Shown here in pieces: positions 6,239-26,906 of a stretch of 52,708 nucleotides of DNA. Origin of the DNA: a virus (taxonomy: Duplodnaviria; Caudoviricetes). The stretch covers positions 1 through 52,708 of IMG/VR virus record IMGVR_UViG_3300012685_000003. One strand, 5' to 3'. Every line of letters starts with the position of its first letter. The first letter of the stretch is position 1. The notes under the pieces are model-generated. The model did not search any database, was not told the DNA's origin, and saw nothing but the letters and a program-made list of their open reading frames with translations. The translations under genes and the position numbers were made by a program.

Positions 6239-6448
6239 GTGGTTACGATGATAGATAAAATGGCCTCATCTCATCGTCGCATGTTGTTAAAACAAGCTGC
6301 AAGCGGTGAACGTGAGCTAGCAAGCGATGTAATAGCGAGAATAGCACTTGACGAGATTGCTGAGTTAGACGATCAAATTACAATACTGAAAACTGAACAA
6401 GCCGCTTCACTCAAGTTGTATAGATCAACAACTACAATGAAAGGTTAA
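6239..6448 (+). CDS. Hypothetical protein
   Basis: ORF track; helical, coiled-coil-like. Confidence 0.55.
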   Translation: MVTMIDKMASSHRRMLLKQAASGERELASDVIARIALDEIAELDDQITILKTEQAASLKLYRSTTTMKG

Positions 6449-8390: not shown

Positions 8391-8920
8391 GTTACGCCCG
8401 CTCTAAAAGAGCAGTAATTAAAGTAGAGATGATATTAAAACAATTACTTGAGGCTAAGGACGATCTTATATTTCAATCACTTGAACCTCAGAAGCTGGCT
8501 TATCATATCCACGAAGGAATGAGATCAGTAGCATTCTATCCAGAGTATTCACTTTACACAGAGTTGAGAGATAAGTTTGTTATTAGAGTCCGTTCGAATA
8601 AAGTTGTAGCGGAGCTTCGTAATAAGACAATAGTAGCATTAGCAACAGTGAGTGAACAACTAGGTAAAATGACAATAGTTGATGTAGATAATGTAATGAG
8701 TGTAATTGGAGCTTGTGTTAAGCATAAGGCAGGAGAGATGTATTTTCCAGCAGCTCAATTTAACGATACAATGCTAAGTGAGCTATATCAATGGAGTGAA
8801 CCTGCTGGATACTTTATCATTAATCATGGTGTTATGGGTATAACGTTAACCAGAGTTCATCCAGGAGAGATAAATTTCGTACCTAAAGTAAAAGAGAATG
8901 GTAATGTCCAAAACAGTTGA
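8387..8920 (+). CDS. Hypothetical protein
   Basis: 177-aa ORF with GGAGG RBS. Confidence 0.7.
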   Translation: MSYARSKRAVIKVEMILKQLLEAKDDLIFQSLEPQKLAYHIHEGMRSVAFYPEYSLYTELRDKFVIRVRSNKVVAELRNKTIVALATVSEQLGKMTIVDVDNVMSVIGACVKHKAGEMYFPAAQFNDTMLSELYQWSEPAGYFIINHGVMGITLTRVHPGEINFVPKVKENGNVQNS

Positions 8921-9761: not shown

Positions 9762-10676
9762 GTGGAAATAATCCAAGCACCCATTAAAAAGTTCATGACT
9801 AAATATGAGCGTTATGAGCCTCGCATACGTGACCATACAGCCCTAATAACAGCTAAAACTTGTTTAAGAAAATATTTCCTGAGTATAGTGTTAGGGTTCC
9901 GCCCGAAGAAAACTAAACAATACTTTGCGTTCGGTGCAGCTTATCATCATTTCAGGGAGATATTACAAAAGAGTAATGGTGATGTTCAAGTTGCACTAGG
10001 AAGTGTAATCAAGTATTGGGCTAAGAATGGAACTGAACCACAGCCCGGTACCCAGTACGACTTCTTAACTGGTGGTAGACTACTAGCAAGTTGTAATGTT
10101 GCCTACCAACACATAAAAAAGATCGAATTAACTGGCCAAATTCAAATACTCCAAGCGGAACAAGTGTTCCAGGTAATGTTATCTGATGGAAAAACAGCAA
10201 TCGGTGGTCGTGCAGATCAAATTGTTAGATGGAATGGTAAGTTGTGGGGAGTTGATTTCAAAACTTCGTCAAAGATGGGACAATTCTACGAGCGTACACT
10301 CGAACCAAATAATCAGTTTACTCTCTACACTCTTGCAGAATCAAAACTTCATGGTGAGCGTGTTCTTGGACAACGAGTTGAGGTATTGTATAACACTAAA
10401 AAAGAAGGACCAAAGATAGTTACGTTAATGACTCAACGTACAGAAGATCAATTGCTACGTTGGGAACAAGAAACAATTTGGTTTGAGAATAATATATTAA
10501 GTAAATGTAGGGATGAAGATATGTATCCAATGGAAGAATCACAATGTCCATTTTGTCCATTCCACAGTGTATGTAAGCAACCTACCGAAGGTGCAATGAT
10601 GGCTCAGTTGGAAACTCATTTCACACAGGTTCCTTGGGATTATTCACAACCAAGTGGAGAGGAGGTTAGTGAATGA
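9762..10676 (+). CDS. PD-(D/E)XK Cas4/RecB-like exonuclease
   Basis: C(LRKY)...GAAYH...E...GRAD...DFKT...CPFCPFHSVC. Confidence 0.88.
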   Translation: MEIIQAPIKKFMTKYERYEPRIRDHTALITAKTCLRKYFLSIVLGFRPKKTKQYFAFGAAYHHFREILQKSNGDVQVALGSVIKYWAKNGTEPQPGTQYDFLTGGRLLASCNVAYQHIKKIELTGQIQILQAEQVFQVMLSDGKTAIGGRADQIVRWNGKLWGVDFKTSSKMGQFYERTLEPNNQFTLYTLAESKLHGERVLGQRVEVLYNTKKEGPKIVTLMTQRTEDQLLRWEQETIWFENNILSKCRDEDMYPMEESQCPFCPFHSVCKQPTEGAMMAQLETHFTQVPWDYSQPSGEEVSE

Positions 10677-14544: not shown

Positions 14545-15051
14545 ATGTTAAGATTACCTCCCAAGAAAATAGCAGTAACTCAAGAAATACTAAATAGATT
14601 TTGGGCTAAAGTCAACAAAACAGAGACTTGTTGGTTATGGACTGGCTCTAAAGGCAGAAATTCGTCTGGTCTTTATTATGGCTACTTTAGATTATTCGGT
14701 TACGTCGAAAGAGCCCATAGAGTTTCGTTTTTTATAACTTATGGCGATTTTGACTTTACACTTTGTATTTTACATAGGTGTGATACCACATTATGTGTAA
14801 GACCAGAGCATCTATTTTTAGGTACAGAGAAGGATAATTCAGACGATATGATAAGTAAAGGTCGCAGAGGATATAGAAGTTTGGAACTAACATCAACGCA
14901 GATTGATGAAATAATAACTAGACATAACAATGGTGAGCCAATAAGAGAATTAGCTTTCAAACTAAAACTTGGTTATGGTACGGTTTGGTCGATAGCTCAT
15001 GGTAAATGGAATCCAAAAAGAAAGACTAAATTGATTGGTGAACAACTATGA
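14545..15051 (+). CDS. HNH homing endonuclease (HNH_3 type) with C-terminal HTH
   Basis: RFWAKV..CWLWTG..YGYF..RAHR..LHRCD..CVRPEHL..GT..DN..DM..KGR. Confidence 0.92.
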   Translation: MLRLPPKKIAVTQEILNRFWAKVNKTETCWLWTGSKGRNSSGLYYGYFRLFGYVERAHRVSFFITYGDFDFTLCILHRCDTTLCVRPEHLFLGTEKDNSDDMISKGRRGYRSLELTSTQIDEIITRHNNGEPIRELAFKLKLGYGTVWSIAHGKWNPKRKTKLIGEQL

Positions 15052-15521
15052 TAAGGTTGCCTCCTAGAAAGGTCGCTTGCACGCCACTTTTCGACACACT
15101 TAAATATGGTTCATTACATATTCCAGAAACAGCTAGAGAAAGAGTCGATCAAGGAATTATCAAATATCAAGGTGTAAATTGTAAATGGACAGGAATAGGA
15201 GACCATGTTACCTTCTCAGGATACACTGGAACTTTATTGTCCCTTGAGGGAGAAGGATTACTTATCGTATTACCTGAAGAATTTGTTGTCGGAGTTATCG
15301 AATATGACTCAACTGATGTTGCGAGAATTGAAATCCCCGGATTGTTTTTTAAAGGAACAGATGGAGAAACATTTAGTGCTACATATGAAATGGCCGTTAA
15401 TCTATTGGCTAAAGGAATAGAAGATAGCACAGTATGGAGTAAGTTAACTGGTGATAAGCATAGGAAGTGGAAAATCCACGAACAGAGACCAAAGGTTAGC
15501 GATTATGATAGGTTACGATAG
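15048..15521 (+). CDS. Divergent GroES-like protein with ~70-aa C-terminal extension
   Basis: GSLHIPETARERVDQGII..G....IGDHVTFSGYTGT.LSLEGE.LLIVLPEEFVVGVIE aligns by eye to the Cpn10 consensus. Confidence 0.75.
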   Translation: MIRLPPRKVACTPLFDTLKYGSLHIPETARERVDQGIIKYQGVNCKWTGIGDHVTFSGYTGTLLSLEGEGLLIVLPEEFVVGVIEYDSTDVARIEIPGLFFKGTDGETFSATYEMAVNLLAKGIEDSTVWSKLTGDKHRKWKIHEQRPKVSDYDRLR

Positions 15522-17284
15522 TGACGACAAATATCTCTACTAAATTTGTACCTTCCGAGGGTGACCCATCTCGTAATATATGGTTTATTGGAGAAGCCCC
15601 CGGAGCAGATGAGGAGACAGGAACATTAAATCATCCTGCTCCTGGTCCATTTATAGGTGAAAGTGGGTCAGTAATATTTACACCATGTTTATTACGTAAC
15701 GGTCTCCCACGACCTGACAGTGTATTCGTTACTAATCTATCTCATCATAGACCTAAAGATAACAAGTTTGAATATCTAATTGGAAGTAAAGAGTTAGCAG
15801 ATGGTATCAATGAAATTAAAGAGTTAATTATTAAAAACAAGCCCGTTGTAATCTGTACGTTAGGTAATTGGCCAATGTATTTCATTACAGGTAAGAAAGG
15901 TAAGAAGCCAGGTTCAGGTATATTAAATTGGCGTGGTTCCATATTACAACATGAAAGTGGTATAAAGGTAATTCCAACAATCCACCCCGCAGCAGTCTAC
16001 CGTGATCGTAAACTCTATCCAATCTTTGACCAGGACATTAAACGTGTTGTATTCGATTCGTCGTTTAGGGACCTTAAGTTACCAGAACGTAAATTCACAA
16101 TCGCCCCTGTGGGTGATGAACTTGAGCATTACACTCAGGTTCTCCTCAAAAGTGATAAGCTGGCAGTTGACATTGAGACCTTTGGCCCAAATATTGGTTG
16201 TGTTGGTTTTAGTAATGATCCTTCTATGGGCGTTTGTATTGTAAATGATAACACTCCTCAATTTAGGGATAGTGTAGATAGATTACTATTGAGTGATATT
16301 CCTAAGATACTACACTTTGGTGTGTTCGATAAAGCCATTCTTAAGTTACATGGCTTCAGTGTTAATAACTATTGGTGGGACAACCAAGTAGCTCAATGTG
16401 TGATGTGGCCAGAGTTACCGCGAGCTCATAAATATTTAGTGAGTACGTATACCCGCGAGCCATATTACAAGAATGAAGCAAAAGAAGGTGGCGGAGATAA
16501 AAAGAGTTGGGGGAAACGTACAGACAGAACTAAACTATGGATATATAATTGTAAGGATGATGCTACAGAGTATGAAGTTCAAGAGTGCCAAGAAAAAGAA
16601 ATGAATGAAGGTCCACCTAACTGGAAGAAATTTTTCAATTTCTCTATGGAAATGTTAGAAGTAGCTGAGCACATATCAGAGTCAGGTATGTTGGTGGATC
16701 AAGATAGGAGAGGGTTATTGGAGCTTGCAGTAACATATAAATATGCTAAGAATCAAGACTTATTAGAAAGATTAACTCACGTTGGTTTCAATGATAACTC
16801 TCATCCACAAGTTCATAAGATGTTATATGAAACTCTTAAACTTCCAGTCCACAAAACTCGTCAGAGTAAAGTTACTGCCGATGAAGATGCATTAATAGCT
16901 CTGATTGCGCTTTGTAAAGAGAAAATTGGAACTATCAGACGAGAGAAAGAACTAGCTGAATGGCAAACTAAATTTCTAATTGTCAAGATGATAATGTTAA
17001 TTAGAGGTCATAGAAAGCTATTATCTAGCTATTTGAGAGCTAAGATAAGTGCTGACGGGCGAATTAGGAGCACGTATAAAGTGCCCGCCACTGAAACTGG
17101 AAGATGGAGCGCAGAAAAGTATGTAGATGGTACAGGTGTTAATGGCCAAACATTCCCTAGAGACTATGTGGAGCTACCACCAGAGAGTGAGCTAAAGGAG
17201 TTTCGGGCTATAACACTTGATATTGCTAACGAAAGTGAAAGTGATAAAGAGGAAGAAGATGATGAGCAAGAGGAAGTAGCATAA
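15521..17284 (+). CDS. DNA polymerase family A, N-terminal part: UDG-like domain, 3'-5' exonuclease and thumb
   Basis: GEAPG, FIGESG, TIHPAA (family-4 UDG); VDIET, FD, YNCKD (Exo I-III); TETGRWS..NGQTFPR; acidic tail. Confidence 0.9.
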   Translation: MTTNISTKFVPSEGDPSRNIWFIGEAPGADEETGTLNHPAPGPFIGESGSVIFTPCLLRNGLPRPDSVFVTNLSHHRPKDNKFEYLIGSKELADGINEIKELIIKNKPVVICTLGNWPMYFITGKKGKKPGSGILNWRGSILQHESGIKVIPTIHPAAVYRDRKLYPIFDQDIKRVVFDSSFRDLKLPERKFTIAPVGDELEHYTQVLLKSDKLAVDIETFGPNIGCVGFSNDPSMGVCIVNDNTPQFRDSVDRLLLSDIPKILHFGVFDKAILKLHGFSVNNYWWDNQVAQCVMWPELPRAHKYLVSTYTREPYYKNEAKEGGGDKKSWGKRTDRTKLWIYNCKDDATEYEVQECQEKEMNEGPPNWKKFFNFSMEMLEVAEHISESGMLVDQDRRGLLELAVTYKYAKNQDLLERLTHVGFNDNSHPQVHKMLYETLKLPVHKTRQSKVTADEDALIALIALCKEKIGTIRREKELAEWQTKFLIVKMIMLIRGHRKLLSSYLRAKISADGRIRSTYKVPATETGRWSAEKYVDGTGVNGQTFPRDYVELPPESELKEFRAITLDIANESESDKEEEDDEQEEVA

Positions 17285-17302
17285 CTTAAACAAGGATAAT
17301 AT

Positions 17303-18091
17303 ATGTACGATTATGTTCTTTATCATGATAATTGTTATGATGGATTTGGTTCAGCCCTAGTTGCCTGGTTAAAATTAGGTGATAACGCTAAGTATATTCC
17401 AGTCAATTATGGACAATATCCTCCAGACTTACCAAAAGGAAGCAAGGTTTTAATTTGTGATTTCTCATATCCACGTGAACAGCTACTTAATTTTGCATTA
17501 GACCACGAGGTTCAAGTATTAGATCATCATAAGACAGCACAAGCAGCACTAGAAGGAATTCCATACGCAACGTTTGACATGAATCACTCTGGAGCATACT
17601 TAACGTGGAAACATTTTTATCCAGAGTCTGATGTTCCTGAATTTATTTTATATTTAGAAGATCGTGATTTATGGACATTTAGACTTCCAGGTAGTCGTGG
17701 TGTGTCTCAAGCTTTGCGGGCTTATCCGTTTGATTTTAATGTATGGAATTCGTTGATGTATGATGTAGAACAGTTACGCCAAGAAGGTCCAGTTATAGAA
17801 CGCTTTACACAGCAAATGGTTAACTTGATGTGTGATAACTCTTTTGAGAAAGTTATAGGTGGACACTTAGTTCCAGTAGCAAATGCAACAGTTTTCTTTT
17901 CAGAAGTAGGTGAAGAACTATGTATTCGTAATCCAAATGCTCCATTTGCTGCTTACTATTTAGATAGAAAAGATGGTAAACGTCAGTGGGGATTACGCTC
18001 AAGAGGAGGATTTGATTGCTCAGAAGTTGCTAAGAAACTAGGTGGTGGAGGCCATCCAGGTGCAGCAGGATTCGTTGAAGAATTAAAATGA
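17303..18091 (+). CDS. DHH/DHHA1 phosphoesterase (NrnB/nanoRNase-like)
   Basis: YHDNCYDG, CDFS, LDHH, HSGA, EDRDLW, GLRS, GGGGHPGAAGF. Confidence 0.9.
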   Translation: MYDYVLYHDNCYDGFGSALVAWLKLGDNAKYIPVNYGQYPPDLPKGSKVLICDFSYPREQLLNFALDHEVQVLDHHKTAQAALEGIPYATFDMNHSGAYLTWKHFYPESDVPEFILYLEDRDLWTFRLPGSRGVSQALRAYPFDFNVWNSLMYDVEQLRQEGPVIERFTQQMVNLMCDNSFEKVIGGHLVPVANATVFFSEVGEELCIRNPNAPFAAYYLDRKDGKRQWGLRSRGGFDCSEVAKKLGGGGHPGAAGFVEELK

Positions 18092-18185
18092 AACTTCGGA
18101 TGAAAGTAAGCACAATGTTACTAATTTGTGCTATCATCATAACCGAGATTTATAACGAAATGTTCATTAAACTTGTGAGACACTT

Positions 18186-18992
18186 GTGGCAATTGATCAA
18201 TTAAAGATTAGAAGTATGATAGTAGCTCCAAAAGGTAAATTACTCATTAGTATTGATCTAGCTCAAGCCGAAGCCTGGGTGGTAGCGTTCTTAGCCAATG
18301 AACCCACTATGAAGAACTCTTTGTTACATGGAGATATTCACAGAGACACAGCAGCATACTTAGACAACTGTAAACCCGAAGATGTTACGCCCACTGGCAG
18401 ATATACAGGTAAGAGATGTAATCACGCCCTAAATTATAGAATGAGTTATCTCCGCCTAGTTCAAGTTGTCAATAAGGAGTCAGATAAACCACCATATGTT
18501 GTACTGTCATATCCACAAGGTAAGAGATTGTTTGAGCGATGGCATCAACTATATAATCTAAAGAACTGGTGGAGTCAAATTGAATACGAACTTGGACAAA
18601 ACGCACGTACATTAACTACGCCATATGGTCGAATTAGAACTTTCTTTGCTGGTTGGGGAAGTGAGCTTTTCAAAGAAGCAACTGCTTATGTCCCACAATC
18701 AACTGTTGCAGACCATCTTAATGGTGCAGTCCAACCTGAACTCGGAATTGAAGGAGGACTACTTGGCGTCTATCGTACTTTTGTTCGAGAACGTCAAGTC
18801 ATCAGAATCATTAATCAATCGCATGATAGTTTTATTTGTGAGTTGGATAAGCAACTTGTTGATGAGATAGCACCACAATTAGTAAATTTAATAAAGCGCC
18901 CGTTAATAGTGAATGGTGAACAATTTACTATCCCCGTTGATTGTGAGATAGGCGAGAGATGGGGACAACTTGATAAATTGAAAGTGAGTTAA
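18186..18992 (+). CDS. DNA polymerase family A, C-terminal part (palm and fingers)
   Basis: Motif A IDLAQAEA, DIH, motif B RYTGKRCNHALNY, TPYGRIR, QSTVAD, motif C HDS. Confidence 0.92.
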   Translation: MAIDQLKIRSMIVAPKGKLLISIDLAQAEAWVVAFLANEPTMKNSLLHGDIHRDTAAYLDNCKPEDVTPTGRYTGKRCNHALNYRMSYLRLVQVVNKESDKPPYVVLSYPQGKRLFERWHQLYNLKNWWSQIEYELGQNARTLTTPYGRIRTFFAGWGSELFKEATAYVPQSTVADHLNGAVQPELGIEGGLLGVYRTFVRERQVIRIINQSHDSFICELDKQLVDEIAPQLVNLIKRPLIVNGEQFTIPVDCEIGERWGQLDKLKVS

Positions 18993-19733: not shown

Positions 19734-20054
19734 ATGAGCAAGTTTCGCAAGAAGCCTGTTATTATTGAAGCATTTCAGTTTAATGGAACGATCTCCAGCG
19801 CCGATGCCATCATTGCATGGGCGGGAATGGAACCGCGCCCCAATGAGCAGAATCTCGACTACTCGGTCACTGACAACGAGGGAACATTTCGAGATAGAAT
19901 CGAGCGTCCTCATCAGTTTGGTCCTCTGCTGATTCATTCACTTGAAGGCGACATGACTGCACAAAAAGGCGATTGGATTATTAAAGGAGTTAAGGGCGAG
20001 TTCTATCCTTGCAAGCCAGACATTTTTGAAGCTACATACGAACCAGTAGATTAA
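19734..20054 (+). CDS. Widespread phage hypothetical protein
   Basis: KFRKKPVIIEA...GDWIIKGVKGEFYPCKPDIFEATYE. Confidence 0.85.
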   Translation: MSKFRKKPVIIEAFQFNGTISSADAIIAWAGMEPRPNEQNLDYSVTDNEGTFRDRIERPHQFGPLLIHSLEGDMTAQKGDWIIKGVKGEFYPCKPDIFEATYEPVD

Positions 20055-21232
20055 TGACAGAACGTGCTTGTGAGAATTGGTTAGAATCATACAAAGATTG
20101 GATTTATCCACGTAGTGAAGCCCCCGAAACATACATATTATGGTCGGGGGTTTTCGCGCTGTCGTCAGTATTAAAGCGAAAGGTTTGGATTCCTAAGAAT
20201 AAATTGTTAGGAAGCTGGGAATGTTATCCACATATGTATGTGTGGTTCGTAGGACCACCAGCTACTCGTAAAACCAGCACAATGGATTTCGCTGATAACT
20301 TACTTTCGCAGATTCCAAGTGTAACAGAAGCAGCGGACTCAATGACTCAGCAAGTATTAGCCAAACGTATTAGTGATACGGGTGATTGCTCAATATCAAT
20401 ACGCTCAGGTGAATTAGGAACATTTATTAATCCAAGTGGTTCTGTAATGATTGACTTTCTTTGCTCATTATGGGATGGTAAACGTAAGTTTAATACGGAC
20501 ACACTCTCACGTGGAGTTGAGTTTGCTCAGTCTCCATGTGCTAATATGATAGCAGCAACAACGCCCGTTTGGATTGCTAACAATCTTAGCGAGCTTATGG
20601 TGGGTGGTGGGCTAACATCTCGTGCGATTATTATCTATGAAGAAGAAATGAGGCGGCGTCAACTATTTTACGAATCCCTTGATTATGAATACTTGGAGAA
20701 ACAACATAGAAGTTTAGTATCAGACTTACTACACATATCTAACCTAGCGGGCGAATTCTCCTTTACGGATGAAGCGAAGGATTTTGCGGAGGAGTGGTAT
20801 AGGAATTTAAAGATGCCAGATGATTATAGATTAACTGGATACTTTGGTAGGAAGCACGTTCATATGTTTAAGTTAGCTATGTTATTAAGGATAGCTTATT
20901 CAGATAGTTTATTAATAACAATAGCTGATTTAAAGTTAGCGTTGAAAATGTTAGGTATAGTTGAGAAGAAATTAGCTATGGCTTATCACAGTGTAGGTAA
21001 GAATCCATATACGATGGAGATGGATACATTGTTGGAGTTTGTAATGAAACGCAAAAGAGTATCGAGAATTGAATTAATATCTACATTTTATCCAATAGCA
21101 GCTCCAAGTGTGATATTAGAATTATTGGGAGCACTGATGACAATGGGTAAAATTGCTATTGATCCAACTAATGGAGATTATATATTTACGGAGAAGAAGA
21201 AAGTTATTATTCCTCCTACTACTGTTGGATAG
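20054..21232 (+). CDS. DUF3987/YfjI-like P-loop ATPase, putative replicative helicase
   Basis: SEAP..Y..W; VGPPATRKTS Walker A; ELGTF; LWDG; GGLTSR. Confidence 0.75.
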   Translation: MTERACENWLESYKDWIYPRSEAPETYILWSGVFALSSVLKRKVWIPKNKLLGSWECYPHMYVWFVGPPATRKTSTMDFADNLLSQIPSVTEAADSMTQQVLAKRISDTGDCSISIRSGELGTFINPSGSVMIDFLCSLWDGKRKFNTDTLSRGVEFAQSPCANMIAATTPVWIANNLSELMVGGGLTSRAIIIYEEEMRRRQLFYESLDYEYLEKQHRSLVSDLLHISNLAGEFSFTDEAKDFAEEWYRNLKMPDDYRLTGYFGRKHVHMFKLAMLLRIAYSDSLLITIADLKLALKMLGIVEKKLAMAYHSVGKNPYTMEMDTLLEFVMKRKRVSRIELISTFYPIAAPSVILELLGALMTMGKIAIDPTNGDYIFTEKKKVIIPPTTVG

Positions 21233-24200
21233 TCGTATTGTAGTTATACTGATGTAATCCTAACCTCTCCAAGTAATCATCAATCCAACTCTTATGTTTA
21301 ATAGTTGGTATCCCTATCGCACGTCCCGCTACTTGTGGTATAGTATACCTGCCCCAAGGGTCCTTAGCTTCCTGAATAGCTTGCATCCAATCACCTGCTG
21401 CATAAGTGCCCGGCGCAAACATACTACGTGGATCAACAGTCATTGGGTTAAAGTCCCAATTGAACCTTTTCTCACCAAATTCAGTAGTTACCTTTAAGAA
21501 TGGTACTAACTTATATAACCTATCTTGAGCTAACTTTTGTTCTATTCCATTCCCATTTAGCGCCGTAAGCGTCGTTTGTAGTAATTGATACTGAGGAGAA
21601 CCACTCCAGAAATAAGAGTGAGCTACTGTAGACCCAAGTAAATCTAATCCTATTGACCTGCCCGCTAACCATATAGCTCCTTGTGCCATTGCAAACCTAG
21701 CCATGTAATTAACACGGTGTCTCAGAGAACCTCGTGTAACCATATTATTAACTAATTCAGTAGCGTGTAATGGCCACGTACCAAACATAGTTAAGAAACG
21801 GCCCTGTGGAGAATTCCAACCACGTGGAGCGTTAGCGCGTTGATAATCAAAAATCGTTTCTTTAGCAGCTCTTTTTGCAATCAAGCTAGCCGCTTCGCTC
21901 ATCTTGCCAGCATATACTAATTGGTCGAACTCTAATCTAAATGAAGGAGCAAAACTATCTAGTGCTAAGTTGTCATAAGCCATAATCTTAGCTTTGACAG
22001 GATCAGGACCAAATTTACCGCTTGCCAGTTTACCTAAATTGTCTAAAGCTAACTTCTCCATCCCCAGGTATACAGCACTATAAGTGTGCTCGTAAATAGT
22101 AGGTAATAGAGTAACAGCATGACCTACCTTAGCGAACGCTTCATAAGCCCTCCAAGCACTTCCACCATGTTTCACCAGTAAGCTAGTAGCTGCTTCCTCT
22201 GGCGTAACCAATGACATATAATCAAGTCCAGATAACACTCCTGTGTTCTTTAACCCCTCAATTGCGCCGGGCTTCTCCGCAAGTTTTAATCCTTCATGCA
22301 TAGCATCAAACCCAAATCTAACTCCTGCGAATAACTCAAATTGACCTAAGTGTCTTAATCCAAGATAAGGTCTGAATGCTATCAATGCAGAACTCATAAC
22401 ACCCATTATAGTATTGGTAATACTCTCAACTATAGTGGGCGATAATATATTCCTACCTAAATGTTCATTTAGTTGAGTAATACCAGCTCTAATTTGAGAG
22501 TGAGCAGGAGAAGGAAATCCTCTTATGTCAGATAGATACCTCTTAACACGCTCGGTCATACTACTAACAATCCACTTGCCAGTTTGATTCTTAGCTAGCG
22601 TTCCTAACTCTATATCATAATCTTTAAGTGCCTGAGTATAAACAGGAACGAAATCTCTAGCTTTAAACATTGTGTCAATATATCTTAAAGCGGCTGTATA
22701 TGGGTTAAGATCAATTGCGCTCATTTCCCCTGTACGTGTGAACTCGTTAATAAACGTATGCATCATTGACCCACCAAGTCCCTTTTGGAACAATATACTA
22801 GCTTCTGGACTCGGTAAATCACGTCCAATCTGTGATCTAATATGAGCCATGTATCCAGATATTTCACGATACGGAGGTAATCCCGCTATTTTGAATAGTT
22901 TATCATACATGGCTTCAAATCTTTTAGCTATTAATATCTCCTTCGGAGACATATTAGATAGCTTAGCAAATTCAGTTTGTGTTGGAGAATCCCACATTAG
23001 TGCATCAGCTAGCCGAGCTATTTCAGCAATTGGAACAACATTAATATCACGTTTAGCTAGACCAGAGAAGATGCCCGCTGCAATTACTCCATTCTGATCC
23101 ATTTTCATTGCACTTATCAATTTAGAAATTTCTAAGTTAATCTCATCTTGTGGTCGTCCCTTTAAATCATCCTTAATAGCATCAACCTTACGTGCAAACT
23201 CTGTAGCTCTAGACGTGTCTGTTCGCAAGTCAGCTAACCCTCTAGCTATATCTACAGCTTCATTCCTACCCTTGCTTAACATCTCCGCTATTTGTTCTCC
23301 TGCTGACATTGCTTCGTTATATCTAAATATATTAAGGAATTGTTCCTTCTTCAATCCCTTTAACATTTTACCAATTGGATCAAGATGCTCGTGAGCAAAC
23401 GCCGAAGTATTAGCATCAGACAAACCTTTAGCCTTTTCTACTCTACGTTGAATGCTAGCAAACTTAGTTCCATGTAAAGTATCAACACTTTCAAAGCTAG
23501 CCTCACGACCAGTAGCGTGATCTAACCAAGCTCTGCCAACGTTTATCAAGTGTCCAAAGAATCCACGATCGAAAGCTGACTTATCAGTGTGATCGAACTC
23601 AGCTTGTAATCCGTCGTTAGGTCCATAAGTAGTAGGAGGTTTAGCTCCACTCGGTGGCATTGCTGCGCCAGCTACTTGATCGGGGATGTTAGTATCCACA
23701 CTTAATTTAGGAGTTACTTGTTGCCCACTTTGATTAATAAACTCTCTAGCTGATTCAGTTGTTCTAAACCTTAGCGGTTTGGGAACAATTTCACCAGCTT
23801 TATTTAACGATATATCACCATTAGGCTCCCAACGAACTGTATAACCATTCGTAGCAGCTTCCATAGCTAATGGTAATTGATCCATTGCATATACAACTTC
23901 TAACGAGCTAACATCTTTCCCTTGCTCAACCTCCATCCTACCTTTTATTCTGTTAAAATTATCTAACTCGTCAGCGGGCATATAAACTTCACGTAACTCC
24001 TTAGCCCACCGTGATCCAATGAAATTTTTAAATCCTTCAATATCAACTCTTTGGATTCCACGTAAGTCTGCAAAGTGTGCTACTTGCAAATCAAACGATT
24101 GTAATAGCGAAAATTTCTCTGCTACATTAGCATAATTTTCGACCTGTTGCTGAACCTCTGGAGTTACTAAGTCCTCTAATTTATGTTCCTGAACATCTCT

Positions 24201-26906
24201 CATGAACTCAGCTAATATTTCTTCTTTAGTAAAATATCTCTTAGCAAGATATATGGAGTTACCTAATGGACCTCTAGTCAAGTTAGACATATCTGGAAAC
24301 TGTAAATTACCAGAAATTGAAGATTCCCAAATGTGTGGCATTGACATAATTGACTGATGAAACGCTTTGAAATCTGTATAAATATCGTTAAGAGTAGCTC
24401 GCTTCAACTCAGTCTGATAAAGCTGAAACATCTCCTTTAAGGGAGTAACTGGATACCTGTGAGATAACTCCTCAGTAATAGCTTCCTTTAATATGGCATC
24501 ATGACCGCCATAAATATCTCTGCCTTCTTTGATAGCGTTGTCAATGAATTGGACATATTTAGCTGTTTCAGGATTAACTAAATCAAGGTTATTATCTCTT
24601 GCAGCTTGCAATATTCTCTCAGCCATTGGTCTATTAAACTCAATAACTCTATCACCAAAAGCATGAGCTACTTCATGCGATAATATACTTTCATATGGAC
24701 GTGTTCCACTTGATATACTTTTAAGAGCCTCAGCAGACCTCATTATAATTTGGTTCAAATCAGGTAAATACGCTCCCAAAACTGGTAACCCACCCTTATA
24801 TGGATCACCACCTATTCCTTTATAATATTCATCAAATAAATCATTGGTACGGAAAGTTGTTACTTTGGCTGGTTGATGAACTTCACCAGCAAACTCTCTC
24901 CAGTGACTAGGAGGTTGGTCTAAATGATTCTTTAATTCACGTAAATTATTTAAAGCAAACTCAAATTGCCATCTACCAAAGTTAGAAGCAGCATCACGAG
25001 CTAATTGTTGTGCTGCATTAAATACTGGTAAGTTTTCATGGGCTTCTGCATAGTCAGTGCTTAATCCACGTAATATAGTTTCAGTTGATGCTTCTGGAGC
25101 GAAGTTAGGATTCCTACCGATGTTAGCTGGCTCATTATAAAACTTGCGGTTACTATCTATTTGATCTGTTACTTCCCTCATAAATCCATATTTATGTTCT
25201 AATGTTCTGATAGCAATTTCAACTTTATCTAGAGTTTCAGAGTAACTCCATTCAAATATTCCTTTCTTACCAAACCCTTGTGACATTCTATTAATAATAT
25301 CACCAATCTTCTCAGCAGCAAATCCATATAGCTGAGAGATTTGAGCTTTCTGAATAGCTAACATAGCTTCTTCAGGAGCACCACGTTGAGCTTCTACTAA
25401 CACATCAAACGGGTCCCTAGGTTTATGGCCCACTGTAACTTCAGTTTTAACTATACCACTACGTGTGTAGGGAGGTCTACGTAGGTCACCATTACCAACT
25501 TCTAAACTTTCTCCTGAGTTCAAATCCTTAACATTTACAAATAGGCCACCAGACTTAGGAGTAATACCTTCATAACTAACTGGCCTCCCCTTATACATAG
25601 CTTCTTGTCCAAAGAACCAACCTTCCCTTTCAAACTGTTTACGGTAATCTGGCTCAATAGCTAATGGACTATCTTTACCATACATAGCCACATCATATCC
25701 ATTGCCATCTAACCTTCTGTGCGTAATTATATTATCACTACTAATTCCACTTCTCTTTAATTGATCCATTACTAGCGGTACTCTCTGGACTCCTGGAATT
25801 ATCGTTATATCTTCTGGACGTAAATTGCGATGAACGTTAGCTAGTGTTGATACAATGGCACCACGTTCCTCGCCTATTAATCTATTCTTGATTCCAGCTA
25901 ATTCAGGATTTTCAACTCCGCTCATTCTATTAATAGAGTATTGCCAAGTATCCAACGCACTAACTTGGTTAGCAGTCTCTCTTACAGCGGAATTAATTTC
26001 AGCATTAGATTGACCAATAACATTTCTACGTAGAGTACGAGTAATGTTATTAGCAATAGCAGCTTCTGTTGGATGTAATGATTTTTCAGCGATCCCATAG
26101 TATTCAGCAATTCTAGTAGTAGCTTCTCTAGCCCCACCCCAAACCATTAGCGCCTGAAATCCAGCACTACTTATAGCCTTGCCAAACTCCTGAATTTTGG
26201 TTGACGCATTACCTGAACCAGTTAATGTGGCGGGCGCATCAAGTATTCTAGATGCTGCACCATATATCATACTACCAACAGCATAAGGTGGAATAGCTAC
26301 CATTGCTATATCAGTATTAGTTAACTCTCTACCTTGAGCACGAGCAATAACAGCTTGATGAATTAATCTAGCTAAGTTCTCTTTGGAACCATAAGTGGAT
26401 TGAGGAGTAACTCCAAAAGATACTTCGCCCTCTGGACCTTGATAGATAGGAGCTTGATTTAGCTCGTCCCAGTTGGCATAATCAGAACGTAATTTTTCGA
26501 CAGATTGTAATGGTGCTGCGTTATCAGCAAATTTACCAAAGAAAGATATAGCACCATGACCAACCTCAGCTCCTCCTCTACCAAAACTAGTAAAAACATC
26601 TCTAACACTTCTAGGAAGAACACTAAAAAGTGGATGTGCGTCAAGCATCTTTTGATCTAACCGCTCAGCCTCAGCATCTTGTGGACTAACTCCATGACGT
26701 TGAATAGCTAATATACGTTCAACATCAGCTTGACTTGCTCCCCTTGATAATAGATCCTTAACATCATTATCAGTTAAAACGGGAATATCACGCTGACCCA
26801 CCACCGAGACAGGAGAAGCAAATGGATTACCAGGTAAGTTGCTATTAAGCGGTTGTGTTCCTGGCTTTTGAGCAAATGGATTATTTGGTAAATTCGGCCC
26901 CGTCAT
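21219..26906 (-). CDS. Large internal virion/ejection protein (1895 aa) with zincin-like motif
   Basis: Last gene of a podovirus-type late arm; SHEVAH...EAITE. Confidence 0.7.
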   Translation of the reverse strand: MTGPNLPNNPFAQKPGTQPLNSNLPGNPFASPVSVVGQRDIPVLTDNDVKDLLSRGASQADVERILAIQRHGVSPQDAEAERLDQKMLDAHPLFSVLPRSVRDVFTSFGRGGAEVGHGAISFFGKFADNAAPLQSVEKLRSDYANWDELNQAPIYQGPEGEVSFGVTPQSTYGSKENLARLIHQAVIARAQGRELTNTDIAMVAIPPYAVGSMIYGAASRILDAPATLTGSGNASTKIQEFGKAISSAGFQALMVWGGAREATTRIAEYYGIAEKSLHPTEAAIANNITRTLRRNVIGQSNAEINSAVRETANQVSALDTWQYSINRMSGVENPELAGIKNRLIGEERGAIVSTLANVHRNLRPEDITIIPGVQRVPLVMDQLKRSGISSDNIITHRRLDGNGYDVAMYGKDSPLAIEPDYRKQFEREGWFFGQEAMYKGRPVSYEGITPKSGGLFVNVKDLNSGESLEVGNGDLRRPPYTRSGIVKTEVTVGHKPRDPFDVLVEAQRGAPEEAMLAIQKAQISQLYGFAAEKIGDIINRMSQGFGKKGIFEWSYSETLDKVEIAIRTLEHKYGFMREVTDQIDSNRKFYNEPANIGRNPNFAPEASTETILRGLSTDYAEAHENLPVFNAAQQLARDAASNFGRWQFEFALNNLRELKNHLDQPPSHWREFAGEVHQPAKVTTFRTNDLFDEYYKGIGGDPYKGGLPVLGAYLPDLNQIIMRSAEALKSISSGTRPYESILSHEVAHAFGDRVIEFNRPMAERILQAARDNNLDLVNPETAKYVQFIDNAIKEGRDIYGGHDAILKEAITEELSHRYPVTPLKEMFQLYQTELKRATLNDIYTDFKAFHQSIMSMPHIWESSISGNLQFPDMSNLTRGPLGNSIYLAKRYFTKEEILAEFMRDVQEHKLEDLVTPEVQQQVENYANVAEKFSLLQSFDLQVAHFADLRGIQRVDIEGFKNFIGSRWAKELREVYMPADELDNFNRIKGRMEVEQGKDVSSLEVVYAMDQLPLAMEAATNGYTVRWEPNGDISLNKAGEIVPKPLRFRTTESAREFINQSGQQVTPKLSVDTNIPDQVAGAAMPPSGAKPPTTYGPNDGLQAEFDHTDKSAFDRGFFGHLINVGRAWLDHATGREASFESVDTLHGTKFASIQRRVEKAKGLSDANTSAFAHEHLDPIGKMLKGLKKEQFLNIFRYNEAMSAGEQIAEMLSKGRNEAVDIARGLADLRTDTSRATEFARKVDAIKDDLKGRPQDEINLEISKLISAMKMDQNGVIAAGIFSGLAKRDINVVPIAEIARLADALMWDSPTQTEFAKLSNMSPKEILIAKRFEAMYDKLFKIAGLPPYREISGYMAHIRSQIGRDLPSPEASILFQKGLGGSMMHTFINEFTRTGEMSAIDLNPYTAALRYIDTMFKARDFVPVYTQALKDYDIELGTLAKNQTGKWIVSSMTERVKRYLSDIRGFPSPAHSQIRAGITQLNEHLGRNILSPTIVESITNTIMGVMSSALIAFRPYLGLRHLGQFELFAGVRFGFDAMHEGLKLAEKPGAIEGLKNTGVLSGLDYMSLVTPEEAATSLLVKHGGSAWRAYEAFAKVGHAVTLLPTIYEHTYSAVYLGMEKLALDNLGKLASGKFGPDPVKAKIMAYDNLALDSFAPSFRLEFDQLVYAGKMSEAASLIAKRAAKETIFDYQRANAPRGWNSPQGRFLTMFGTWPLHATELVNNMVTRGSLRHRVNYMARFAMAQGAIWLAGRSIGLDLLGSTVAHSYFWSGSPQYQLLQTTLTALNGNGIEQKLAQDRLYKLVPFLKVTTEFGEKRFNWDFNPMTVDPRSMFAPGTYAAGDWMQAIQEAKDPWGRYTIPQVAGRAIGIPTIKHKSWIDDYLERLGLHQYNYNTTIQQ

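Follow-up and report, generated by a model that had tools for sequence, protein, structure and literature searches.

Several bacteriophages have been described in which a polymerase or another enzyme is encoded in two pieces. In the available text of two reports, phage polA occurs as two pieces with an unrelated small open reading frame (ORF) between them, an arrangement conserved within its lineage (PMC10580990; bioRxiv 10.1101/325100), and the second of these speaks of 'split DNA polymerases' in a cyanophage lineage and in a Synechococcus island (bioRxiv 10.1101/325100). According to the accessible part of PMC2988022, the products of the split gene 43A/43B of Aeromonas phage 25 co-purify and polymerise, and the nrdA gene of phage Aeh1 is split by mobE and gives an active split NrdA. 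For phage PhiKZ, the available portion of PMC13648687 describes a family B DNA polymerase whose N and C subunits associate stably in a 1:1 ratio, with the nuclease-bearing RNase H-clamp protein Rhc as a third subunit. Here we describe a 52,708-nucleotide stretch of DNA from an uncultured soil phage of the Caudoviricetes (IMG/VR record IMGVR_UViG_3300012685_000003, positions 1 to 52,708; hereafter the window), in which a UDG-exo-PolA polymerase, combining a uracil-DNA glycosylase (UDG)-like domain, a 3'-5' exonuclease and a family A polymerase core, is encoded by two genes that flank a gene for a DHH/DHHA1 phosphoesterase and a small hydrophobic ORF.

Our reading of the locus, to which as a whole we assign a probability of about 0.8, is that it encodes a two-polypeptide PolA that would derive from a single old break, with an acidic tail acquired later, a junction that acts as a slot for cargo genes, and a DHH enzyme that is accessory to the polymerase.

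The polymerase is encoded in two complementary halves

A sequence-only reading of the window had proposed a natural two-gene PolA: an N half that ends just after QTFPR with an acidic tail of about 40 residues, an intact DHH gene with its own ribosome binding site, a short hydrophobic ORF, and a C half that resumes the polymerase core with essentially nothing missing between the halves. All four ORFs lie where that reading had placed them (Table 1), the tail has 40 residues of which 17 are acidic and three basic, and the domain content of the two halves bears out the remainder of the description.

The amino-terminal part of the N half (residues 11-163) matches the Pfam UDG model PF03167 at 43.1 bits against a cut-off of 24.3, and scores 60 bits with the family 4 UDG model TIGR00758, far under its cut-off of 125.3; the GEAPG- and HPA-type positions E25, G28, H155 and P156 are invariant in an alignment of 31 N-half sequences. 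The exonuclease domain is a weak match to PF01612 (E 0.003; 17.8 bits, below the cut-off of 23.6), and the same family is given in the precomputed Pfam column for most N-half homologs. Residues D217, E219, D270, Y342 and D346, which we take to be the Exo I, II and III positions, are invariant in the same 31 sequences, as are T544, P546 and R547 of the QTFPR motif, presumably the counterpart of NLQNIP in Pol I.

The C half begins seven residues ahead of IRSMIVAP, and its residues D24, E29, R72, K76, N79, H80, Y84, H213 and D214 do not vary among 17 C halves (44-58% identity). We assume that D24 is the motif A aspartate, that R72, K76 and Y84 form the R..K...Y of motif B, and that H213 and D214 are the HD of motif C. 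The histidine at H80 (18423-18425) occupies what we take to be the position of Phe762 of E. coli Pol I, by which environmental PolA genes are classed. Most clade-A C halves (clade A is defined below) have a Cys/His-rich insertion (C.H.W ... C..C) in the fingers before motif B, which may be a zinc-binding module (L006-L009, L088, L089, L092, L097 and L100); the window C half and those of L005, L084, L098 and L099 are without it, and L018, L090 and L093 have a shorter insert without cysteines.

The two halves divide each polymerase profile between them. The Pfam model DNA_pol_A (PF00476, 381 positions) is covered from 22 to 124 by the N half and from 139 to 380 by the C half, with 71.7 bits for the C half (cut-off 34.3) and 29.7 bits, below the cut-off, for the N half alone. 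The phrog_17 profile is covered from 549 to 989 and from 995 to 1234 (6.9e-33 and 8.2e-32), and with the NCBIfam Pol I models the N half ends at 632/633 and the C half starts at 649/650, leaving ~16 model positions uncovered. Because the halves are complementary in all three profile systems, almost nothing is missing between them, and the earlier statement to that effect is about right. By profile and catalytic motifs this is a family A polymerase, but one whose core is predicted not to lie on a single polypeptide.

The genes are tightly packed. The N half ends in TAA and is followed by 18 nt that include AAGGA, 8 nt upstream of the DHH ATG, in agreement with the ribosome binding site noted previously; the DHH stop codon overlaps the start of the 38-aa ORF (ATGA), which in turn overlaps the C-half GTG start by 19 nt. 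The two polymerase halves do not share a frame and are separated by 901 nt, with two in-frame stops after the N half. Terminator-like sites were not found between any of the four genes, the only two found both lying within coding sequence, and promoter-like sites do not exceed the number due to chance (25 observed, 23.9 expected). The N half, DHH gene, 38-aa ORF and C half probably form one operon with translational coupling. The 38-aa ORF, which has no match in Pfam, PHROG or PADLOC and no homolog among 32 gap ORFs of relatives, is possibly only a bridge for this coupling.

The suspicion of misassembly raised alongside the sequence-only reading is answered by a 52.6-kb contig from a second assembler, which covers the stretch with 0 differences at ~18x depth. 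This contig probably comes from the same source sample, and represents an independent assembly and not an independent sample.

The break is conserved across a large clade

Searching 5.8 billion proteins with the N half gave 377 homologs at E <=0.001, of which the best 120 were examined. Down to 39% identity, 116 of these are 529-608 aa in length and have the N-half form; the four exceptions are two truncated proteins, a 929-aa protein (P0076) and an 829-aa fused protein (P0096). A scan of IMG/VR with the single N-half sequence as query yielded no relative, and a query built from the alignment of 31 N halves did. The 160 loci obtained from IMG/VR and JGI metagenomes were reduced to 141 by removal of 19 duplicates, and were classed by BLAST as fused (98), split (24) or without a C part (19). 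Sixteen of the last group end <=557 nt from the N match, two are fused by a more sensitive profile, and one is broken: in L019 (6938-9172) the C part of the polymerase runs over two more overlapping frames, for which frameshifts, assembly errors or decay are possible explanations. Six further loci from GTDB, binned into metagenome-assembled genomes (MAGs), comprise two fused, three split and one cut by the contig end, so that fused loci total 102 (98, plus two by profile and two MAG-binned); all are more distant relatives. These six (L244-L249) are phage-sized contigs of 44-48 kb in MAGs labelled archaea (including Nitrososphaerales and Woesearchaeota), Parabacteroides and Geminicoccaceae, labels that are probably binning noise and not evidence of host.

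All 17 of the IMG/VR and JGI loci that have both halves and at least 36% identity, together with L244, are broken after QTFPR and before the IRSMIVAP strand; we refer to these as clade A. The survey of relatives that had been suggested therefore finds the same break in 18 loci with both halves, all of them without a DHH gene between. Phylogeny was reconstructed by FastTree from 160 N parts with a midpoint root, excluding two fused loci and one partial split locus with short or interrupted matches. Clade A forms a single branch of 57 rows with support of 99, situated amid fused relatives. Nested deep within it is the fused protein P0096, in which a 14-residue linker joins QTFPR to IKIRSMIVAP; from its position this looks like a secondary re-fusion, and since the linker joins these two elements directly, the two halves together equal one chain. 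An AlphaFold2 model of P0096 (mean pLDDT, the predicted local distance difference test, of 83.7) shows residues 506-548 as coil with pLDDT <50, including QTFPR (530-534) and the linker (535-548), and a confident catalytic domain from approximately residue 550, which is where the window C half begins. On the evidence of alignment and tree, the clade-A split is an old and conserved feature that would have a single origin, in the ancestor of this large clade of uncultured ~50-kb phages. The retention of the break across this clade, the invariant catalytic residues, and the lack of Rfam introns and of inteins at the locus (see below) uphold the proposal of a natural two-gene PolA.

Independent breaks and insertions near motif A

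Nine more distant split loci (27-30% identity), which we refer to as clade B, are cut ~10-15 residues beyond the clade-A break, past the IRxxF(V/I) strand and immediately before the motif A strand, and have no acidic tail. These are L022, L061, L062, L143, L145, L070 and L082, with L247 and L249 assigned to the group by the start of their C-part profile match; the tree holds only the other seven. The clade-B cut requires at least two origins on the tree, one in L070, whose sister L139 is fused (support 100), and one in the group of L022, L082 and L062. The gap of L070 contains a 109-aa ORF for an HNH endonuclease (phrog_826, 8.1e-13). Other relatives (L063, 8608-9596; L068, 2030-3276; L161) are single-chain with ~1-1.2-kb in-frame insertions near motif A, that of L068 having a weak Hint_2 match, and P0076 contains an intein plus LAGLIDADG insert within its exonuclease domain. 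Since an HNH ORF lies in the L070 gap and insertions occur in L063, L068 and L161, the neighborhood of motif A is, by these sequence signatures, a repeated target of mobile elements in the UDG-exo-PolA family.

The acidic tail is a derived feature of the split form

The tail was evaluated in 115 of the 120 N-half homologs, leaving out four without the motif and the fused P0096. In 92 of the 115 it is longer than 15 aa with a net charge of -6 or lower, and the median length over all 115 is 37 aa. The corresponding linkers in fused relatives (n=72, in which both profile ends are reached) are of 0-16 residues with a median of 0, and none of the 72 is acidic. By this distribution the long acidic tail is a derived feature of the clade-A split forms. 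The tail sequences are not alignable and the charge is kept; a frequent ending is a pair of small hydrophobic residues, with AA in 17 tails and VA in six. Because charge persists despite sequence drift, and is missing from the 72 fused linkers and from the clade-B splits, we infer that selection acts on the charge of a disordered acidic tail.

Acidic C-terminal tails of T7 gp2.5, T7 gp4, T4 gp32 and bacterial SSB dock on partner proteins. It is plausible, and the interpretation we prefer, that the N-half tail is likewise a tethering segment, or else a mimic of DNA.

The junction is a variable slot

The halves abut or overlap in six of the 18 clade-A loci (L005, L090, L092, L093, L098 and L244), and the remaining junctions contain one to three small ORFs. 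These gap ORFs are unrelated between lineages and are shared only by near-identical relatives (L004 with L084; L062 with L143 and L145); family matches were obtained for a few, namely DUF4031, RyR-domain and peptidase_M15-like proteins and the HNH endonuclease of the L070 gap. No endonuclease was found in any of the 18 clade-A gaps, and the window gap, with the DHH gene and the 38-aa ORF, is also without an endonuclease match. Judged by its gene content, the intergenic junction is a variable slot for unrelated small genes. The premise that interrupted phage polA genes usually contain introns, inteins or homing endonucleases is therefore too narrow for the UDG-exo-PolA family, whose gaps hold many unrelated small genes.

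In L092 the two halves are in one frame with a single TGA between them (6367-6372), and in L005 they are separated by TGA plus one codon (8735-8743); as the frames agree, readthrough in these two would yield a fused protein with an acidic linker.

A homing-endonuclease origin of the clade-A break was considered and is not borne out, with no endonuclease in any clade-A gap and the halves abutting or overlapping in a third of its loci. A stop-and-restart mutation would be an equally good origin.

The DHH gene looks like a recently inserted passenger

The DHH gene product matches phrog_4771 at 3.7e-76, the Pfam family DHHA1 at 28.5 bits (cut-off 25.9) and DHH at 22 bits, below the cut-off of 28.1, and has no NCBIfam match. 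Its residues D13, D53, D74-H75-H76, D120 and D122, and GGGH at 248-251, are invariant in 30 homologs. JGI labels homologs 'oligoribonuclease NrnB/cAMP/cGMP phosphodiesterase (DHH superfamily)'. Among proteins of solved structure, the closest in sequence are 9r7o, TmPDE/TM1595, SH1221, NrnA, Rv2837c and GdpP. Stand-alone DHH/DHHA1 enzymes of the NrnA type degrade 2-5-nt RNAs and linear dinucleotides, as described in the accessible portions of the literature. By motif and similarity the window enzyme is of this NrnA/TM1595-like, nanoRNA/dinucleotide type and not RecJ-like, and by analogy its substrate would be a nanoRNA or dinucleotide. Enzymes of the phrog_4771 type are widespread in phages of many sizes, with 135 phage-collection records and at least 524 IMG/VR stretches; a literature search on phage DHH enzymes found no published role.

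The sequence-only reading had offered the DHH enzyme as a third partner of the polymerase, and here the comparative evidence is unfavorable. A DHH gene is present in none of 27 other split junctions; none of four complete clade-A genomes has a homolog, using a query that recovers the window's own copy; and in none of 80 DHH-bearing viral loci does the gene lie between polymerase pieces, with six of the 80 having a family A polymerase no more than 5 kb away. Identity among DHH homologs in the large protein database reaches 69% at best, compared with up to 85% for N halves. A 151-nt contig of depth 2.2 from a run of another soil study (X2) joins position 17282 to 18101, with 11 letters replacing 818 nt. 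Its flanks differ from the window at 7/83 and 2/57 positions, the N half keeps the same last residue and stop, and the sequence resumes inside the 38-aa ORF. The segment from 17283 to 18100 thus seems, from this alignment, to be a cassette that was inserted after the N-half stop, ahead of a short spacer already present. Its composition gives no sign of foreign origin in either GC content (0.374, genome 0.394) or 3-mer correlation (0.717, against a mean of 0.713 for 789-nt windows). A repeat of 5 nt close to each border of the cassette was attributed to chance. A complex prediction of the DHH enzyme with N-half residues 190-587 and the C half, run with alignments and no controls, scored 0.00 and speaks neither for nor against binding. 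From its distribution and from the indel, the DHH gene looks like a recently inserted passenger and not a part of the polymerase.

Genome organization

The genome is complete at 52,708 bp, with direct terminal repeats and an estimated completeness of 100%. The plus strand forms a replication arm and the minus strand a structural arm. The structural arm includes genes for the terminase large subunit, portal and major head protein, all highly divergent, and starts with a 1,895-aa ORF (21219-26906, minus strand) that has no PHROG match at E <=1e-5, as is also the case for several other large ORFs of this arm. The replication arm codes for an SNF2 helicase, a TSCPD-domain protein, a PD-(D/E)XK exonuclease, an AAA_24-like ATPase, an HNH endonuclease, the split polymerase with the DHH enzyme, and a DUF3987 primase/helicase. 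The TSCPD-domain protein (PF12637; 7059-7463, plus strand) is a stand-alone protein. A 106-aa protein of the same arm (19734-20054, plus strand) matches phrog_419 and phrog_1810, with a weak match to a nucleotide pyrophosphohydrolase PHROG. The sequence-only reading saw no 5'-3' exonuclease; this holds for the FEN (flap endonuclease) type, although the PD-(D/E)XK exonuclease is encoded at 9762-10676.

The HNH endonuclease gene is free-standing (14545-15051, plus strand; PF13392; phrog_1872, 7.2e-23) and lies 470 nt upstream of the N half, from which it is separated by an ORF of no assigned function (15048-15521). Neither this ORF nor the DHH gene has a PADLOC match.

Table 1. Features of the split polymerase locus, with coordinates in the window.
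Feature	Coordinates	Strand	Description
Polymerase N half	15521..17284	+	587 aa, GTG start; UDG-like, 3'-5' exonuclease, thumb, first part of PolA core, acidic tail
UDG family 4-like domain	15551..16009	+	N-half residues 11-163; PF03167, 43.1 bits
3'-5' exonuclease domain	16115..16537	+	N-half residues 199-339; weak PF01612 match
QTFPR motif	17147..17161	+	N-half residues 543-547; last conserved element ahead of the break
Acidic C-terminal tail of N half	17162..17281	+	40 aa, 17 D/E, 3 K/R, ends EEVA
DHH cassette	17283..18100	+	818 nt; apparent indel relative to a close relative (X2 contig)
DHH/DHHA1 phosphoesterase gene	17303..18091	+	262 aa, NrnA/TM1595-like, catalytic motifs intact
Small hydrophobic ORF	18088..18204	+	38 aa; no family match
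Polymerase C half	18186..18992	+	268 aa, GTG start; palm and fingers, motifs A, B and C

Discussion

We envisage a polymerase in which a 587-aa N subunit would supply the UDG-like domain, proofreading exonuclease, thumb and a disordered acidic tail, and a 268-aa C subunit the whole catalytic palm and fingers, the break having fallen in the loop between QTFPR and the strand leading to motif A. The two products would reassemble non-covalently along an interface that is internal to single-chain relatives. After the break the N subunit would have gained its long acidic tail, which may tether the catalytic subunit or another replisome protein, or shield a DNA-binding surface. The junction would then have exchanged unrelated small genes, and in the window would have taken up the 818-nt cassette with its intact NrnA-like DHH/DHHA1 gene. 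The DHH enzyme presumably acts alone on short oligonucleotides or dinucleotides, in nucleotide salvage or in the removal of signaling or priming nanoRNAs.

Several observations weigh against this reading. Most of the split rows in the clade-A branch (39 of 56) are database proteins called split by length alone, with no genomic context, and the direction of change from fused to split is taken, in a midpoint-rooted FastTree phylogeny, from the general single-chain state of family A polymerases. The thumb of the P0096 model is of low confidence (pTM, the predicted template modeling score, of 0.52), and because it is poorly modeled the prediction would add only that the break sits in a flexible connection. 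The tail is 15 aa or shorter in 20 of the 115 homologs, and is thus not essential for the split enzyme. The form without the DHH gene is represented by the one short contig from X2, and it is from this contig and the DHH search that the gene would be lacking in the nearest relatives (81-85% identity). The lists of N-half and DHH homologs share one contig size of 5,783 nt (P0099 and P0205), a possible second case of a DHH gene near a split polymerase. Finally, four relatives (L070, L165, L223 and L168) have a DHH gene ~2 kb from the UDG-exo-PolA gene, so that DHH genes sometimes fall within replication modules and may have a loose functional link with replication.

These four relatives also lend something to the view that the DHH enzyme is a true third subunit or dedicated partner, removing short oligonucleotides or the remains of primers as a substitute for an absent 5'-3' exonuclease, as does its position between the halves in a tightly packed operon, the lack of a FEN-type exonuclease in the genome, and the conceptual precedent of Rhc in PhiKZ, as far as the available text of that report describes it (PMC13648687). 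We nevertheless regard such a partnership as very unlikely, given that the gene is missing from each of the 27 other split junctions and from the four complete clade-A genomes, that in 74 of the 80 viral loci with this DHH family no PolA lies closer than 5 kb, and that a close relative appears to be without the cassette. The enzyme resembles nanoRNases and dinucleotide phosphodiesterases, which in the accessible literature act on 2-5-nt substrates, and not RecJ or FEN, and a PD-(D/E)XK exonuclease is encoded elsewhere in the genome. A broader proposal would make the tail, like those of SSB or T7 gp4, the glue or switch of a two-subunit PolA, docking on the catalytic subunit or the DUF3987 primase-helicase through a basic surface of either, or filling the DNA cleft until assembly, and would make the junction a slot for expressing accessory proteins in step with the polymerase, here a nanoRNase that acts on primer remnants at the fork. 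We consider this proposal rather improbable. Another alternative is that split and tail are both non-adaptive: a homing endonuclease, or a nonsense or frameshift mutation, would have broken the gene, the halves would still assemble, and the tail would be a solubilizing or drifting remnant. The HNH ORF in the L070 gap beside a fused sister, the origin of at least three separate cuts no more than ~15 residues from motif A, the re-fusion in P0096, the shortness of some tails and the lack of conservation in tail sequence are consistent with such a history. We hold it to be possible and on the whole doubtful, because no endonuclease is found in the clade-A gaps, and acidity is kept in 92 of 115 tails of varying sequence and is encountered neither in fused linkers nor in clade-B splits.

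The two remaining explanations deny that two subunits are made, and both receive scant credence. Were the halves rejoined into one chain, by RNA splicing with the DHH ORF in an intron, by split-intein trans-splicing or by recoding, the locus would conform to the introns and inteins common in phage polymerase genes; inteins do occur among the relatives (P0076, and perhaps L068 with its weak Hint_2 match), and the same-frame halves of L092 and L005 would permit recoding. However, no Rfam match was found at E up to 1 on either strand between 15000 and 19500, and no Hint or intein Pfam domain occurs in the tail or where the C half begins. The residues at the break are a 40-residue, mostly acidic tail and a C half that starts just seven residues before IRSMIVAP, the halves differ in frame across 901 nt with two stops behind the first, and the gap sequences of relatives are mutually unrelated, unlike a conserved ribozyme; rejoining is thus extremely improbable. 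An artefact or a dead gene, in which either the assembly is chimeric or a recent insertion has disrupted a polymerase now heading for loss, would be in keeping with a metagenome-derived genome, with the apparently recent cassette and with the C part of L019 broken over several frames. Against this, the same break recurs in more than 100 database proteins and in 18 related loci that are independent of one another, the catalytic residues of either half do not vary at 40-58% identity, the second assembler agrees throughout, and the genome is complete with terminal repeats. The cassette, moreover, lies exactly between the N-half stop and the older spacer and disrupts no reading frame, and we can give the artefactual account almost no weight.

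Split phage polymerases are known, mostly as single cases. The large and diverse uncultured clade described here provides a natural series, consisting of one ancient break, at least two further nearby breaks (one with an HNH gene), one re-fusion, a derived tail, and a junction that exchanges cargo. Such a series shows where a family A polymerase tolerates cutting, which is useful for the engineering of split polymerases, and presents a testable case of a new subunit interface stabilized after gene fission. It also illustrates that a gene between two halves of an enzyme need not belong to that enzyme; the DHH enzyme here is a member of a widespread phage family.

Comparison with known systems

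The closest known systems include the single-chain phage UDG-exo-PolA polymerases of phrog_17 (such as those of Desulfofustis phage LS06-2018-MD01, Microcystis phage Mel-JY34 and the Manatee Spring phage genomes), which have the same domain order and motifs. They are only 22-27% identical and use one gene, whereas here there are two genes and a derived acidic tail at the break. The stand-alone enzymes NrnA, TM1595/TmPDE, SH1221 and Rv2837c share intact DHH, DxD and GGGH motifs with the window DHH enzyme, which is shorter (262 aa versus 320-340 aa) and only weakly similar, mostly in DHHA1.

The split polA genes described in the accessible text of PMC10580990 and bioRxiv 10.1101/325100 resemble the window in consisting of two pieces around a small ORF, but their polymerases are described as T7-like or Zobellviridae-like; this comparison is by description. 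The words 'uracil' and 'DHH' occur in neither of these available texts, and the split polymerases that they report are not among the phage-database matches of either half. A UDG-exo-PolA clade, a derived tail, repeated breaks within ~15 residues, re-fusion and cargo turnover were not found in the available text of PMC10580990, bioRxiv 10.1101/325100, PMC2988022 or PMC13648687, whose figures and supplements may show break points. PhiKZ, as described in the accessible part of its report, likewise has a two-gene polymerase, but of family B, and the DHH gene here is not conserved with the polymerase.

The T4-like genes-in-pieces, as presented in the available portion of PMC2988022, include the family B DNA polymerase 43A/43B of Aeromonas phages 25 and 44RR, Aeh1 nrdA with mobE, and T4 topoisomerase with mobA. 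In each an essential replication gene is carried as two cistrons, as here; an untranslated spacer or a free-standing endonuclease divides it in a region critical for function, and the products reassemble into active enzyme. The gene of the window is similarly contiguous in relatives, namely the 102 fused loci, with both pieces intact as judged by their invariant catalytic residues, and L070 is the endonuclease version of this arrangement within the UDG-exo-PolA family. The two-gene PolA described here is thus of the same kind as the known genes-in-pieces systems. It differs from the T4-like examples in being a family A polymerase, in the endonuclease-free clade-A gaps with their turnover of cargo, and in the acidic tail of its upstream subunit.

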